Below, in pieces: positions 7,865 to 17,601 of a DNA stretch of 64,000 nucleotides. Origin of the DNA: a virus. The translations under genes were made by a program, and so were the position numbers. Every line of letters starts with the position of its first letter. The stretch's first letter is position 1. The stretch spans positions 6,306 through 70,305 of IMG/VR virus record IMGVR_UViG_3300023104_000005. One strand, 5' to 3'. The notes under the pieces were generated by a model, which was not told where the DNA came from, did not search any database, and saw nothing but the letters and a program-made list of their open reading frames with translations.

Positions 7865-7872
7865 TATCTTTG
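7865..7872 (+). promoter_or_regulatory. -7 promoter element (TATCTTTG), probably giving a leaderless mRNA
   Basis: Consensus match, 4 nt before ATG 7877. Confidence 0.65.
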
Positions 7873-11300: not shown

Positions 11301-11692
11301 ATACAATGAAAAGGCTCAATATTCAATGCTTTTAGTTCTTGGTTATGAACAAATATGGAGAAATCTACGCTACAGGAAAGAGGTTAGACAAAAAGAATGG
11401 ATAAGAAAACAAACTCAACTTAAATTTGAAAAATATGACCAATCTAGACAGAATTGACTACATCTCAAGGGGACTACAGGAGTTTCCGGGAAGCAAGCTA
11501 GTATTCATCTCCATACAGCCGGATGAACTGGTAAACCTCACTAAAGAACTACAGGAAGAATACTGTGACTGTAGCACTGCCTATGTGATTGTAAAGAACC
11601 AATCATGGGAGTATGAACTAAAGATATTCAACATCTGCTTTATCCTGACAATCATTGGATCGGCACCTCAAATTAAACTACATGAAGCGTAA
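8389..11692 (+). CDS. Run of small hypothetical genes; 9975-10364 has an HExxH motif (AHEVVH)
   Basis: About 12 tightly packed plus-strand ORFs. Confidence 0.65.
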
Positions 11693-12164: not shown

Positions 12165-12356
12165 ATGACAAATACATTTCAACTTTGTCCTAAATGCAAT
12201 GGGACTGGCACAAGTTTTAATTACAACGCACTAAACACATCTGCAATATGTGATGTATGCAAAGGCGCTAAGATAATCTCTATGCTAACAGGACTTCCAC
12301 CACAACAAACAACAATTCAAACACAAACTAACACAACAAACAATGACAAAATTTAA
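12165..12356 (+). CDS. DnaJ-type zinc-finger small protein
   Basis: CPKCNGTG and CDVCKG. Confidence 0.6.
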   Translation: MTNTFQLCPKCNGTGTSFNYNALNTSAICDVCKGAKIISMLTGLPPQQTTIQTQTNTTNNDKI

Positions 12357-12636
12357 AAGACTATTAGGCGATAGAATCATCGTAAAACCCGCAGAGAAGA
12401 TCACAAAGACAGAAGGAGGGATTTATATGCCTGATTCAGCCGTTGAGAAGCCCATACAGGGAGAAGTAATCCAAGTTGGACAAGGAATACAGGCACCACA
12501 CAACGGAGTGCTTATAACGCCATCAGTGGTTGCAGGAGAACAAGTTCTTTATGGACGTAATGCAGGGACAGAAATCCCTATTGATGGAGAAATCTACCTG
12601 ATTCTAAGAGACAGTGAGATATGGGGGGTATTGTAA
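12343..12636 (+). CDS. groES: Co-chaperonin GroES
   Basis: LGDRIIV...KTEGGIYMPDSAVEKP..GEVIQVGQG...YLILRDSEI. Confidence 0.92.
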   Translation: MTKFKRLLGDRIIVKPAEKITKTEGGIYMPDSAVEKPIQGEVIQVGQGIQAPHNGVLITPSVVAGEQVLYGRNAGTEIPIDGEIYLILRDSEIWGVL

Positions 12637-12834: not shown

Positions 12835-13398
12835 ATGCTAAAATTTAAAAAGATTACAATCACAACAAAACGCAAGCGACAGTTTGTAAAAGTCATTTTC
12901 TTCAAGGACGAGGTAGGCATCGAAGGTCAAGTGTTCTCTGCTAAACTGACCAAAGAAACAAACCAGATGCTTTCTAAATCTCTAGGAACAGCTATCAGCG
13001 GTTTAATCCCTCATTTGCTCTACAGCACAAACCTTACAGACAGTTCTATCAAGCTAGATGCAAACATGGACTATCCTAAATGGTTCAGAGAAGGTCATTA
13101 CGCTGACGACAAGCGCTTCGACAACATGGCGGTAACTTCTATTGAGTTCATTGGTAAAGAGGGCTTAGATGCCGTTAAAATCTTCGGATATAAAGAAACA
13201 GAATGGACAGACAAACCATTCAAAGTGAAATTAGAAACTCCGGTAATAAACTTAGATCGTGTTCCTGAGAATCATTATGCTTTAGTAGCTATTCTTGACG
13301 AGCAGATAGACGACATTATCAAAGGTATCGAGGACTTTTTAGAGAAAGGGGACACGCTCTCCAAGGCTCAACAGGCAGAACTTGAACTAACTTATTAA
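12835..13398 (+). CDS. Hypothetical protein
   Basis: 187-aa ORF followed by a terminator. Confidence 0.75.
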   Translation: MLKFKKITITTKRKRQFVKVIFFKDEVGIEGQVFSAKLTKETNQMLSKSLGTAISGLIPHLLYSTNLTDSSIKLDANMDYPKWFREGHYADDKRFDNMAVTSIEFIGKEGLDAVKIFGYKETEWTDKPFKVKLETPVINLDRVPENHYALVAILDEQIDDIIKGIEDFLEKGDTLSKAQQAELELTY

Positions 13399-13437
13399 TC
13401 AAATCATTTAAAATTTAAACCCATTCTTCTTACATTA

Positions 13438-13466
13438 AAGGCTGTCCAAAGTGATGGCCTTTTTTT
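13438..13466 (+). terminator. Intrinsic terminator
   Basis: AAGGCTGTC caaagt GATGGCCTT followed by a T tract. Confidence 0.7.
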
Positions 13467-13535
13467 ATGCTCAAATATTTCTTTACATTTGTTCAGCCAA
13501 TGAGCAATGTAGCCATTCGAGCAAAATATAAAAAC

Positions 13536-14048
13536 ATGAAAAGTAAAATCAGAGTCGAGTTTGATTTCGACAACAAACAGCCATTTATTCAAGTGTCTCT
13601 TGCAGAGAACAACGAACCCGGAACAGAAAATGATATGCGGGATCAAATGCTTAAAAACTTTATTGAAACTGTTAAAGAAACAGGTATTGAGGTTATGTTC
13701 CCTTCCAAAAATAACAACCCTATCATTGAGTTAAGACCAATGTTTGATACTACTGTTTTAAACCTAGCAGGTGAATCAATTAAAACAAAGTTAACAACAA
13801 GTATGTATGAGGCTTTTTGGGAGTCTATAAGTGGCGCTATGTGGGCTTCTGATGGAACAGAAAGGGAGGCATTAGATGTTATGAAAGGGTATATCACTGG
13901 TTTGGTAAACTCAGATAGGTTTAAGATTACAGATGAACAGAGAGAATTTATAAATGGATTCTTTGATTGGGTTAAAACACCTACTAAATACCCATTAATG
14001 AACGCTTTTAGCCAACCTGTTCCAACAGAAGTTACAGATTTTGATTGA
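13536..14048 (+). CDS. Hypothetical protein with its own promoter (TACATTTG 13484-13491)
   Basis: ORF; start reassigned to the ATG downstream of the promoter. Confidence 0.7.
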   Translation: MKSKIRVEFDFDNKQPFIQVSLAENNEPGTENDMRDQMLKNFIETVKETGIEVMFPSKNNNPIIELRPMFDTTVLNLAGESIKTKLTTSMYEAFWESISGAMWASDGTEREALDVMKGYITGLVNSDRFKITDEQREFINGFFDWVKTPTKYPLMNAFSQPVPTEVTDFD

Positions 14049-14070
14049 TAAGAATTTCCGTTAATCATTT

Positions 14071-14101
14071 AGCCCCTGCTGTCGAGAGTGGGGGCTTTTT
14101 T
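14071..14101 (+). terminator. Intrinsic terminator insulating the tRNA operon
   Basis: AGCCCCTGCT gtcgag AGTGGGGGCT followed by TTTTT. Confidence 0.75.
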
Positions 14102-14129
14102 ATATGCTATTTTATTTGAAAAACATTTA

Positions 14130-14137
14130 TATATTTG
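14130..14137 (+). promoter_or_regulatory. tRNA operon promoter -7 element (TATATTTG)
   Basis: Consensus match, 4 nt before the leader ATG. Confidence 0.65.
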
Positions 14138-14141
14138 TGGC

Positions 14142-14210
14142 ATGGAATTAAGAAACATACAACAGTGGCCGAATCAACCTGACATAATTGTCAAGCGGTT
14201 TGCTGTATAG
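14142..14210 (+). CDS. Putative attenuator leader peptide MELRNIQQWPNQPDIIVKRFAV
   Basis: Codons 7-13 are CAA CAG TGG CCG AAT CAA CCT, matching the amino acids of the downstream tRNAs. Confidence 0.75.
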   Translation: MELRNIQQWPNQPDIIVKRFAV

Positions 14211-14230
14211 TTTTAATTCTAAACGCATTT

Positions 14231-14262
14231 GAGCCTCTTGACAAAATCAAGAGGCTTTTTTT
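14231..14262 (+). terminator. Conditional (attenuator) terminator before the tRNAs
   Basis: GAGCCTCTTGA caaaa TCAAGAGGCTT plus T tract; its 5' arm can instead pair with 14188-14201. Confidence 0.85.
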
Positions 14263-14268
14263 ATGTCT

Positions 14269-14339
14269 GCGAACATAGTATAACGGTAGTACATTGGTCT
14301 CCAAAACCAATAGTCAAGGTTCGAATCCTTGTGGTCGTG
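14269..14339 (+). tRNA. tRNA-Trp(CCA)
   Basis: TTGGT-CTCCAAA-ACCAA anticodon arm; TTCGAAT T loop; one acceptor-stem mismatch; no encoded CCA. Confidence 0.88.
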
Positions 14340-14344
14340 CAAAT

Positions 14345-14417
14345 AGTGCAGTATATCAATTGGCAGATTACCACATTTGGGATGTGGAGGTTCCGGGTTC
14401 GAGTCCCGGTTGCGCTA
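14345..14417 (+). tRNA. tRNA-Pro(TGG)
   Basis: CCACA-TTTGGGA-TGTGG; CCGGG-TTCGAGT-CCCGG. Confidence 0.9.
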
Positions 14418-14423
14418 CAACAC

Positions 14424-14495
14424 TTTCCTATAGTGCAATGGTTAGCACGTCGCATTTTGGTTGCGAAGATTGGAGTTCGAGTCTCTGTGGGAAAA
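14424..14495 (+). tRNA. tRNA-Gln(TTG)
   Basis: TCGCA-TTTTGGT-TGCGA; acceptor stem TTTCCTA/TGGGAAA. Confidence 0.9.
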
Positions 14496-14769
14496 CAAAG
14501 AGTATTATGCCCTCTGCTATGACTTTACATGGCGAAAGTGGCAATGATCTACCACCTATCAGTTGAAACTCCACAGATGTTGAGATGGAGATGGTTATGG
14601 TGGATGTATTTGCTAACTGAGCGATTTTAAGGACTTCTGAGAGACTTTTTGTTATGAGGTGATAGTTTGGTTGGCTTTGAGGTTAATATCGCTTAAATCG
14701 ATATAAAAATAAATTAAAATATTTCTTGGTTACTATTGACAATATGTAAAATATCCGTATGTTTGTCTT

Positions 14770-14931
14770 ATGAAATCAACCAAAGAGATAACAATCGTTC
14801 CAAGTCAGACTTATACAAAGACTGAGTATGCTAAGGCGTACAGCATGAGCCGACCAACGGTAGATGCTAAAATCAAAAACAAACAAATCAAAGCAGTTGA
14901 AGTGAATGGGGCTACTCTAATCATAGCGTAG
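14770..14931 (+). CDS. 53-aa excisionase/Cro-like HTH protein
   Basis: TKTEYAKAYSMSRPTVDAKIKNKQIKAVEVNG; promoter TATGTTTG at 14758, 4 nt upstream; heads the replication operon. Confidence 0.75.
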   Translation: MKSTKEITIVPSQTYTKTEYAKAYSMSRPTVDAKIKNKQIKAVEVNGATLIIA

Positions 14932-14979
14932 TCTTTTTTGGCTTTAATAAATCGTAAAACGTAAAGAAAAATTAACAAA

Positions 14980-15237
14980 ATGGAAGTAAAATCACAATCA
15001 AACATCGAATTTTCAATGACCTTCACTGTCTCAGAAAGCGAAGCAAGAGCATTAGATGCCTTAGTGGGTTATGGGTTCAAGCCCTTTATAGAAGTCTTTT
15101 ATGAGAGACTAGGAAAGTCATTTATGCAACCTCATGAGAAGGGACTCAAGTCATTATTTGAAACGGTAGAAGCTGAAATACCTAAGCACCTGTCCAGAAT
15201 GAGCAACACACGTAAAACATTTAACTCAAACCTGTAA
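14980..15237 (+). CDS. Hypothetical protein
   Basis: ORF within the operon. Confidence 0.7.
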   Translation: MEVKSQSNIEFSMTFTVSESEARALDALVGYGFKPFIEVFYERLGKSFMQPHEKGLKSLFETVEAEIPKHLSRMSNTRKTFNSNL

Positions 15238-15238
15238 T

Positions 15239-15871
15239 ATGAACATTTTAGAAAAAGAATTAGAAGATTTAGTATTTGAAACTTTACAGTCAGGTAAGGT
15301 AGATTTATTAGTAAAAAGAGGATTAAGAAATATCGGTAAGTTCTCTGTTATTTCAAGACAATTAGCTTTAGGTGATTACGGCAGATTAGATATGGTTGGT
15401 TTCAATTATGATACTCACAATCAAACTATAGGACGTAAAAGGTTAGAAGTAGGTATTTTTGAACTTAAAAAAGGAGAAATAAATTTTGAAACTTTAAAAC
15501 AGGCAATGAGATACTGTAAGGGTATACAACATTATTTAGATGATACTATGCCTATTTTTGACATTGACTTCACAATAACGTTAATAGGAACGTCTATATG
15601 TAAAAGTGATTTTGTTTACTTAGCTGATTACATGGACATGTTGACTATTTACACTACCAAGCTAGACTTAGAAAAAGGCATAACATTTCAAAAGGAAAGC
15701 CATTACAAAATCATAAAAGCTAAATTACCAACTGAAAACTCTCAGGTAGAGAACTCTATTAAAAGAATGATCTTAAATAAGATAAAAACAAAAGTTACGG
15801 GGGTTAATCAATCTACATCTGCTTTTTCTGATTTTGCTTCTATTTTTGGTGATGATGATCAACCATTTTAA
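15239..15871 (+). CDS. PD-(D/E)xK (NucS-like) nuclease
   Basis: LEKELED...GRLDMV...IFELKK...QAMRY. Confidence 0.65.
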   Translation: MNILEKELEDLVFETLQSGKVDLLVKRGLRNIGKFSVISRQLALGDYGRLDMVGFNYDTHNQTIGRKRLEVGIFELKKGEINFETLKQAMRYCKGIQHYLDDTMPIFDIDFTITLIGTSICKSDFVYLADYMDMLTIYTTKLDLEKGITFQKESHYKIIKAKLPTENSQVENSIKRMILNKIKTKVTGVNQSTSAFSDFASIFGDDDQPF

Positions 15872-16578: not shown

Positions 16579-17601
16579 ATGAAACTAATCGACTATACAC
16601 CCCAAATTATACATCACCACAAGAACGGACAAGCTAGAGGCAAAGAAATTGGATTTAGATGCTTGAAGGACTTAGTGACGTTCAAACCTAAATACACTAC
16701 TTACTTACTAGGGTTTCCTAGAAGCGGTAAAACAGAGTTTCACTTGGAGATATTATTCAACCTTACTCAGCAGTATGGAGACAAGCACGCATTAATGTCA
16801 CCGGAGATCGGTGGAGTAGAAGATGTAATCGCAGAGTTAGTCAGTAAATACCTAAGAAAAAATTTCTTTAAATCTGATTTTAGTTATTCGGCTACTGAGT
16901 CTCAGATTTATCAAGCTATGACTTATCTTTCTGAATATTTCTTTGTGCTTGACAATGACAGCAAAGATTACAACATTGATATGTTTTACGAGGATTGTGT
17001 TAAAATTGAGACAGACAATGGCATTAAGCTAAACACTACATCAATTGATCCTTGGAATGACTTAGATGAAAATCTAGCTGACTACGGTGGCAGAGAAGAT
17101 AAATACCTAGCGGCCGCACTAAGAAAAGTTCGTTCTACAGCTAAAAAGAATGACTGGCATAACTTCATTATCACACACGCTAAAGAAATGCCCGTATTCG
17201 AATTAAAAAGCACTTATGGGGGAAAGGTTGCCTGTACTGCTATTCCTACCTTACAGAGCTTCGCAGGGGGTCAGGTTTGGTCAAGACGAGGCTTCAATGT
17301 GATAGGGATGTGGAAACCTGAGAAAGGGGCAATAAACAAGACGACCGGACATCCTTTTGCTGATAATGAAGCGATGGTAAAGATTTTAAAATCAAAACCT
17401 AAAGGCTCTGGAAATTTAGGGTTCACTTATCTGTTCTATGATTGGAAAAAAAACAGGTACTACGAGATGATCGGGGATAAGATTTATTATGCTTATGAGC
17501 ATTTGAAGATTGAAGACGAACCTGTGATTGAAATAGTCAATCCTGTAGAGCCTAAAGAGAAAATAACTACTGAACAGTATTCTAACGAACTGCCATTCTA
17601 A
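16579..17601 (+). CDS. DnaB/SF4-like replicative helicase
   Basis: Walker A GFPRSGKT; IDPWN; IITH. Confidence 0.8.
   Translation: MKLIDYTPQIIHHHKNGQARGKEIGFRCLKDLVTFKPKYTTYLLGFPRSGKTEFHLEILFNLTQQYGDKHALMSPEIGGVEDVIAELVSKYLRKNFFKSDFSYSATESQIYQAMTYLSEYFFVLDNDSKDYNIDMFYEDCVKIETDNGIKLNTTSIDPWNDLDENLADYGGREDKYLAAALRKVRSTAKKNDWHNFIITHAKEMPVFELKSTYGGKVACTAIPTLQSFAGGQVWSRRGFNVIGMWKPEKGAINKTTGHPFADNEAMVKILKSKPKGSGNLGFTYLFYDWKKNRYYEMIGDKIYYAYEHLKIEDEPVIEIVNPVEPKEKITTEQYSNELPF

Follow-up and report, generated by a model that had tools for sequence, protein, structure and literature searches.

A candidate leader-peptide attenuator in front of a three-gene phage tRNA operon

Why phages carry transfer RNA (tRNA) genes is debated: they have been proposed to compensate for codon usage, to replace host tRNAs that have been degraded, or to allow escape from defences that cleave tRNAs (PMC10264068, PMC11555353). 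How such genes might be switched on is the question raised by a locus in the IMG/VR virus record IMGVR_UViG_3300023104_000005. The record is 70.3 kb long and estimated to be 98% complete; its bases 6306-70305 are the 64-kb stretch of DNA that was analysed, referred to here as the window. The window's tRNAs are those for Trp, Pro and Gln alone. They begin 5 nucleotides behind the T-run of an intrinsic terminator, and ahead of that terminator lies a 22-codon open reading frame (ORF) with a cluster of codons for tryptophan (W), proline (P) and glutamine (Q). Why should a tRNA operon start behind a terminator, and why should the small ORF in front of it encode the same three amino acids that its tRNAs carry? 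The answer favoured here, at a probability of about 0.65, is that the ORF belongs to a leader-peptide (ribosome-mediated) transcription attenuator that controls the three tRNA genes. A first-pass annotation, made from the letters of the sequence, had proposed such an attenuator; the terminators, promoter box, leader ORF, patch codons and three tRNAs that it named are all present in the places it assigned to them. The parts are as follows.

14071 to 14102, plus strand: upstream intrinsic terminator, with a stem at 14071-14096 of 10 pairs, 6 of them G-C, then a T-run.
14130 to 14137, plus strand: promoter box TATATTTG, a Bacteroidota-type -7 element recognized by sequence.
14142, plus strand: transcription start predicted from box geometry, on the A of the ATG.
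14142 to 14210, plus strand: leader ORF MELRNIQQWPNQPDIIVKRFAV, 22 sense codons with a TAG stop at 14208-14210.
14160 to 14180, plus strand: sensor patch, codons 7-13, CAA CAG TGG CCG AAT CAA CCT (Q Q W P N Q P).
14143 to 14221, plus strand: 1:2 hairpin in the predicted fold, segment 1 at about 14143-14184 and segment 2 at about 14188-14221.
14188 to 14244, plus strand: 2:3 antiterminator in the constrained fold, 14188-14201 paired with 14231-14244 and a small hairpin enclosed.
14231 to 14263, plus strand: 3:4 intrinsic terminator, stem 14231-14257 of 11 base pairs, 5 of them G-C, T-run to 14263.
14269 to 14340, plus strand: tRNA-Trp(cca), Infernal score 63.7 bits.
14345 to 14418, plus strand: tRNA-Pro(tgg), 54.3 bits.
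14424 to 14496, plus strand: tRNA-Gln(ttg), 60.0 bits; the cut-off of the Rfam tRNA model is 29 bits.

Clustered codons for the amino acids concerned are a defining trait of leader-peptide attenuators, and the leader has them. Q, W and P are confined to codons 7-13, where they fill six of the seven positions; the claim that these residues occur nowhere else in the peptide was borne out. When all six frames of the window were scanned, QQWPNQP at 14160 was the sole 7-codon stretch with at least six Q/W/P. These residues make up 8.4% of the phage proteome; given the amino-acid usage of the phage, a 21-residue peptide would hold a 7-residue window with at least six of them with a probability of 2.5e-5. 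In the leader peptide itself, the six-of-seven level is reached by just 2 of the 1140 possible amino-acid triples. Allowing for about 250 windows in the 260 nucleotides upstream, the chance of such a patch is about 4e-4 per tRNA cluster, and the window ranks first among 242 phage tRNA clusters in the 7-codon-window test.

The RNA of the leader region is unusually stable, with a minimum free energy (MFE) of -38.6 kcal/mol (z -3.9); none of 200 shuffled sequences was as stable. The free RNA folds into the 1:2 hairpin (-20.4 kcal/mol for 14142-14228) and the terminator (-16.5 kcal/mol). The 1:2 helices described in the first-pass annotation are those of this MFE fold, and the 2:3 pairing that it described appears in constrained folds. 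Folding with segment 1 free or ribosome-held gave the two states that it had foreseen: the 1:2 hairpin with the terminator in the one case, the 2:3 antiterminator in the other. When the ribosomal A-site was placed at codons 9-12 and the transcript ended at 14244-14250, the 2:3 helix reached -18.0 to -18.7 kcal/mol, stronger than the terminator at -16.5 kcal/mol. A transcript of that length precedes synthesis of the terminator's 3' arm, and segment 2 pairs with the 5' arm and the loop. With the ribosome placed at the stop codon, segment 2 is covered and the antiterminator does not form in the constrained fold. The models thus have the features of an attenuator, namely mutually exclusive 1:2, 2:3 and 3:4 helices, a segment 2 that a stalled ribosome would free and a ribosome at the stop codon would mask.

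The strength of the alternative pairing was expressed as the antiterminator gain, the energy obtained by adding the terminator 5' arm to the upstream 45 nucleotides. The gain is -14.1 kcal/mol and was equalled by 4 of 2000 dinucleotide shuffles. It was also compared with 80 natural terminators, perfect-stem terminator-like hairpins from the window and 80 related loci (80 of the 214 IMG/VR stretches that encode a relative of the phage's helicase). It is the strongest of the 80; the runner-up has -8.2 kcal/mol and the mean is -2.35 with a standard deviation of 2.3. The terminator stem is near-identical to common terminators in the genomes of the family of a Pedobacter genome (301 searched), and the terminator sequence occurs once in the phage record. 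The phage terminator is one of host type, its loop differing so as to fit segment 2. A ribosome was also moved along the leader codon by codon, with three assumed footprint edges; the antiterminator formed with the A-site at codons 2 to 12/13 and was lost from 13/14 onward. In this model the Q/W/P patch fills the last positions at which a stall would permit read-through, as in classical attenuators.

How would such a device work? Transcription from TATATTTG would begin on the A of the leader ATG or beside it, the messenger RNA (mRNA) would be leaderless, and a 70S ribosome would engage the leader while RNA polymerase proceeds. With ample Gln-, Trp- and Pro-tRNAs, the ribosome would reach the stop codon and cover segment 2, the 3:4 terminator would form and transcription would end. 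If no ribosome loads, the 1:2 hairpin would form and the terminator would act as well. Slow decoding of CAA/CAG, TGG or CCG/CCT would stall the ribosome within codons 7-13, where it would hold segment 1 and leave segment 2 to pair with segment 3; the polymerase would then read through and the Trp, Pro and Gln tRNAs would be made. Since these products would relieve the stall, the circuit would amount to negative-feedback, supply-on-demand control of the three tRNAs during infection.

Could the same RNA switch without a ribosome? A bound factor, an uncharged tRNA in T-box-like fashion or a protein, might select between the helices without translation, or the terminated transcript might itself serve as a small RNA. 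The alternative helices are real, the region bears a weak resemblance to the trpB riboswitch candidate (30.6 bits), and the part of the patch at 14172-14179 is unpaired in the MFE fold, all of which such a switch would accommodate. It would leave unexplained, however, an open frame that runs from the predicted start site to a stop inside segment 2, as well as six in-frame sense codons for exactly three cognate amino acids. Furthermore, no T-box is among the 13 Rfam matches listed at E up to 10, nor is any leader family other than Phe_leader, and no family reaches its threshold; the analogous modules described below are all ORFs with in-frame cognate codons. A switch made of RNA alone is therefore considered improbable.

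Under the attenuator reading the leader has to be translated, and its promoter geometry is informative in this respect. Four bases separate the G of the box (14137) from the leader ATG (14142). In Flavobacterium johnsoniae the -7 box spans -12 to -5, 4-5 nucleotides from the start site (PMC6847099), and the F. psychrophilum box lies at the same position (PMC9723704). Applied to the phage box, whose G is at 14137, this measured Flavobacterium distance puts the predicted start on the first base of the leader ATG (14142). Two further ORFs of the phage open with this TAnnTTTG-N4-ATG layout, one of 170 amino acids (7865/7877) and one of 53 (14758/14770), and in run X3 a relative has retained TATATTTG and the ATG, with four other bases between them, ahead of a homologue of the 53-amino-acid gene. 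Among 1333 TAnnTTTG boxes counted in the window and the 80 related loci, 49 have an ATG at spacing 4, compared with 11-29 at spacings 1-3 and 5-8 and 18 for a control triplet. The ORFs opened by these 49 ATGs are mostly 50-180 codons long, and the boxes are located in the intergenic gaps that precede operons. The recurrent TAnnTTTG-N4-ATG is also found in relatives at L002:5453, L003:5606, L005:3482 and other places. Leaderless mRNAs make up 5.5% in F. psychrophilum (PMC9723704), and the counts suggest that in the phage group they serve the first genes of operons much more often than in its hosts. That the small ORF is translated without a leader, as the geometry predicts, is plausible.

The first-pass annotation had held that its reading would fall if the tRNAs had a promoter downstream of the terminator. 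There is no TAnnTTTG box between 14138 and 14757, and hence none of this kind between the leader and the tRNAs, although promoters of other types are possible. An intrinsic terminator with no such promoter behind it is again what an attenuator would have between its leader and its genes. Might the 22-codon ORF instead encode a small functional peptide with a promoter and a terminator of its own, the tRNAs having come to lie next to it by cassette insertion? The leaderless promoter layout is shared with real genes, the ORF does have its own terminator, and the cassette is a mosaic one (see below). No homologue of the peptide or of its DNA was found in the databases searched, though, and the idea leaves the cognate patch and the antiterminator unexplained and the tRNAs without a promoter. 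This explanation is regarded as the least probable of those considered.

The organism in which this regulation would take place can be narrowed down. A tblastn search with the helicase (16579-17601) returned 100 phage records, among them 79 Flavobacterium, 15 Riemerella and 2 Cellulophaga phages, and prophage-like relatives occur in Parapedobacter, Pedobacter and Runella genomes. The runs that contain the stretch are labelled leaf-litter metagenomes, with no RNA run listed among them. No Shine-Dalgarno sequences precede the genes of the window, whose upstream regions are rich in A. From the helicase relatives, the prophage hosts, the leaf-litter runs and this gene-start grammar, a Bacteroidota soil host is deduced. 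For F. psychrophilum, "strong clues" of leader-peptide attenuation ahead of amino-acid operons have been inferred (PMC9723704).

If the arrangement is functional, do other phages have it? Two samples of IMG/VR were surveyed. The first consists of 80 loci retrieved by a tRNA-Trp pattern plus the window, with 276 usable tRNA clusters, and the second of 79 loci retrieved by a generic tRNA D-arm pattern, with 161 usable clusters. An architecture filter, which requires a small ORF and then a terminator-like hairpin within 80 nucleotides, passed 19 of the 276 clusters and 6 of the 161. Among the 19, three clusters (L161, L122 and the window) have cognate enrichment at p<=0.01; the random-set mean is 0.38 and 1 of 1000 draws reaches three. 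At p<=0.001 there are two clusters against a mean of 0.22, a number reached by 14 of 1000 draws. In the second sample, four of the six filtered clusters have p<=0.01 (mean 0.38; no draw in 1000 reaches four) and none has p<=0.001. The small-ORF enrichment in the unfiltered first sample amounts to 3 clusters at p<=0.001, as against 0 on the reverse strand. The hits ranked next in the 7-codon test either fall within long coding ORFs or lack a terminator.

The individual modules are instructive. The L122 module (11322-11467) has a 25-codon leader in which N, P, H, Q and W are abundant; behind it come a terminator and tRNAs for Pro, Asn, Gln, His, Trp and Thr. Its ATG stands 4 nucleotides after an ATATTTG box, its antiterminator gain is -13.9 kcal/mol (equalled by 4 of 1000 shuffles), and its stall competence ends at a TGG codon. 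Since the L122 tRNAs are just 57-66% identical to those of the window, L122 is an independent case. At L161 (1258-1433) the leader is L/R-rich: its four Arg codons are all AGA, and TTA accounts for five of its Leu codons. A terminator follows, and then tRNAs Leu(taa), Arg(tct) and Leu(tag). The minus strand of L272, a 67-kb IMG/VR contig, carries three paralogous leaders (5244-5125, 3819-3745 and 2323-2207) that share their first codons and are each followed by a terminator. Their middles track the tRNAs: Asn-rich ahead of two tRNA-Asn genes, Ser/Arg-rich ahead of tRNA-Arg and tRNA-Ser, and Lys/His/Phe/Trp-rich ahead of an array of those four. By its sequence, L272 is a case of leader/tRNA covariation within one genome, on DNA other than the window.

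How does the attenuator fare beside a more ordinary account? The ORF may be incidental and the terminator ordinary, the tRNAs being transcribed by constitutive leak or with the help of a phage antitermination factor on transcripts from 14130 or further upstream; the patch and the 2:3 pairing would then be coincidences picked out by a very large scan. A number of results weigh on this side, beginning with conservation. No homologue of the leader was found in phage records, IMG/VR, a metagenome scan, 301 Bacteroidota genomes or four related runs. In none of the 22 closest related loci, which were scanned for tRNAs, is there a tRNA within 7 kb, and the module is absent. In two relatives, G002 and G004, a tRNA-Thr and a tRNA with anticodon tca stand 3-5 nucleotides behind a hairpin or full terminator; a long ORF comes before it, and there is no leader. 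Junctions of this kind mean that the layout is common in the phage group and cannot by itself argue for attenuation. In addition, a contig of run X5 has a T-run just before a related tRNA-Pro, and the terminator stem is generic in Sphingobacteriaceae-type genomes, an identical 25-mer being present in unrelated contigs.

Other points on the same side concern the statistics and the promoter. Since the locus was picked from a very large scan, the chance rate of the codon patch taken by itself, about 4e-4 per cluster, should not be neglected. With the window excluded from the first sample, three clusters pass 1e-3; permuted sets give 1.7 on average and reach three in 70 of 300 cases, which is not significant. 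In the 7-codon test on the 242 clusters, cognate and reverse-strand counts were 9 and 12 at 1e-3, 4 and 2 at 1e-4, and 1 and 1 at 1e-5; the unfiltered surveys in this sense lack enrichment. Three of the four hits in the filtered second sample lie on the one contig L272, and the counts are not all independent. The -33 TTG is absent at the 19-nucleotide spacing used at 7865 and 14758, which makes the promoter a weak one, and a transcription start one base downstream would remove the AUG. The leader Pro codons, CCG and CCT, require wobble reading by the UGG anticodon. Early and late genes are alike in their use of Q, W and P codons and offer no rationale for these three tRNAs. Finally, the terminator wins every full-length fold at equilibrium; the switch, therefore, has to be kinetic.

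An incidental ORF nevertheless needs four independent coincidences: the patch (about 4e-4 per cluster), the antiterminator (4/2000), an ATG at leaderless spacing, and a patch whose end is the end of stall competence. It must also accommodate a terminator that alone among 80 has a strong alternative pairing, and the full analogues in unrelated phages. On balance it is judged unlikely, and the leader-peptide attenuator is preferred. What the first-pass annotation had proposed is partly supported: its core, an attenuator with cognate leader codons, agreed with every in silico test that was run (patch uniqueness, geometry, helices and stall zone), and the placement of a terminator before tRNAs says nothing by itself.

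The absence of the leader elsewhere has to be seen together with the history of the region. Run X2 has an identical copy of the module, the sole occurrence among the four DNA runs compared. A blastn search of phage records with 13000-15500 recovered tRNA-Trp cores alone, from unrelated phages (10 records, 2-3% coverage). In IMG/VR, the 193-amino-acid protein encoded upstream of the module and the helicase, as single queries, found 0 relatives, and exact patterns from the terminator and tRNA-Trp found 0 matches. The metagenome scan gave two unrelated contigs alone, in which the 25-nucleotide hairpin is an opposite-strand terminator, and the 301 genomes of the Pedobacter family gave generic terminator look-alikes and chance matches alone. 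Helicase relatives number 423 at E<=0.001; the nearest, 88% identical in its helicase, is on an 80.7-kb contig (P0002). In the syntenic relatives L002 and L003, which share the NinB-like gene, the 12835-13398 homologue, the replication initiator and the helicase, about 1 kb of other sequence replaces the module. Related strains represented by contigs in runs X4 and X5 agree with the window as far as 13510 and from 14570 onward, with unlike sequence between these points; the block made up of the 193-amino-acid orphan ORF, the leader and the tRNAs is therefore a mosaic cassette of recent origin. Of five related records searched, two have tRNAs elsewhere: one for Thr, one with anticodon tca and a weak one for Leu.

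The surroundings of the module are simple. The upstream terminator closes the unit that contains the 193-amino-acid ORF (13467-14048) and insulates the module; this ORF has no match in PHROG or Pfam and no usable match in Atlas. Downstream, the region 14497-14735 has no significant structure (z -1.4). The phage also encodes a Cpn10/GroES co-chaperonin at 12343-12636 (Pfam PF00166, E 1.3e-24).

Several observations on the terminator and on related tRNAs were made along the way. The 25-nucleotide hairpin 14232-14256 is identical in the unrelated metagenome contigs L082:2187-2211 and L083:993-1017, in opposite orientation and with no tRNAs there. A 226-nucleotide contig of run X2 shares 14232-14261 alone, its upstream sequence being unrelated; its depth of 3.2 is not additive with the 3.3 of the tRNA contig, and it is probably another locus with the same terminator. 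A variant of tRNA-Pro, which differs from 14350-14418 by 3-5 letters and an inserted T, occurs in a tRNA array after a T-run in runs X2, X4 and X5 (longest contig 5 kb, depth 12) and may belong to the host or to another phage. The tRNA with anticodon tca in the relative G002 (L204:1501-1572) is classified as SeC by ARAGORN and would read UGA; it lies 3-5 nucleotides behind a full intrinsic terminator, with a long ORF before it.

To which known systems does the module compare? Leader-peptide attenuators are best known from amino-acid operons, with trpL, hisL, pheL and leuL and the multivalent thrL and ilvL. By its sequence the phage module would be of the trp/his type, having a short leader, clustered codons, four segments that can form 1:2, 2:3 and 3:4 helices, and an intrinsic terminator. 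Its stop codon is likewise placed where a finishing ribosome would mask segment 2, and, as in the thr and ilv attenuators, several amino acids would be sensed together. Unlike the attenuators of amino-acid operons, it is carried by a phage and would regulate tRNAs rather than biosynthetic enzymes. Charged cognate tRNA, the signal, would therefore be the direct product of the regulated genes, which closes the feedback loop.

Attenuators are also found before aminoacyl-tRNA synthetase genes, as in pheST/pheM of Escherichia coli. These share with the phage module a leader-peptide sensing that controls the decoding machinery and not amino-acid synthesis; the phage module differs from them in targeting the tRNA itself, with three inputs in about 130 nucleotides. 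In Streptomyces, leaderless leader peptides and attenuators before aminoacyl-tRNA synthetase genes have been described, the examples from Streptomyces lividans being the alaS, thrS and trpS leaders (PMC8079986). An inducible extra tRNA operon is known from Anabaena (PMC8421152), its control being attributed to the protein repressor TrcR (PMC10272220). It too is a supplementary tRNA set, normally silent and turned on when translation is impaired. Unlike the phage module, the Anabaena array is cellular and located on a megaplasmid, and "attenuat", "leader peptide" and "terminator" do not appear in the text of PMC8421152.

Among RNA families, the trpB motif (RF04312) is the nearest in layout, with a hairpin followed by an intrinsic terminator and an antiterminator in the right shoulder of the hairpin; it is described from Firmicutes and Fusobacteria, where it precedes protein-coding genes (PMC11109978). 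The score of 30.6 bits against a gathering score of 59 leaves the window outside this family, and 20.8 bits against 55 leave it outside Phe_leader (RF01859). The closest counterparts are the modules of L122, L161 and L272, which have in common with the window a cognate-enriched small ORF and a terminator just before the first tRNA; strong antiterminator pairing is common to the window and L122. The window module differs from all three in its compactness, with three tRNAs and one 7-codon patch, and in belonging to a Bacteroidota phage of about 70 kb. It has a -7-box promoter and a predicted leaderless start, and it has no sequence homology to the other examples. A description of leader-peptide control of tRNA genes or operons was not found in the open-access literature searched. 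The mechanism would be a classical one, and the novelty would lie in what it regulates, tRNAs, and in what carries it, a phage.

What would the phage gain? One tentative answer, which goes beyond the attenuator itself and is rather doubtful, is that the module is a three-input counter-defence sensor: host immunity directed at tRNAs, or a loss of tRNA-Gln, tRNA-Trp or tRNA-Pro brought on by infection, would stall the ribosome on the leader and switch on replacement tRNAs when, and only when, there is need of them. That the sensed agents are host anticodon nucleases such as PrrC and PARIS is purely conjectural. The element is self-contained at about 130 nucleotides and its host group (Flavobacteriia/Sphingobacteriia) has genetic tools, so the idea is directly testable. 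If the attenuator is real, the phage gauges how fast specific codons are decoded and supplies exactly those tRNAs that match them, and the logic of attenuation would extend from the supply of amino acids to the tRNA pool. The module would then be a natural, compact sensor of codon-specific translation stress. If, in addition, the counter-defence reading is true, leader-gated tRNA cassettes would be mobile anti-defence units that are exchanged between phages.

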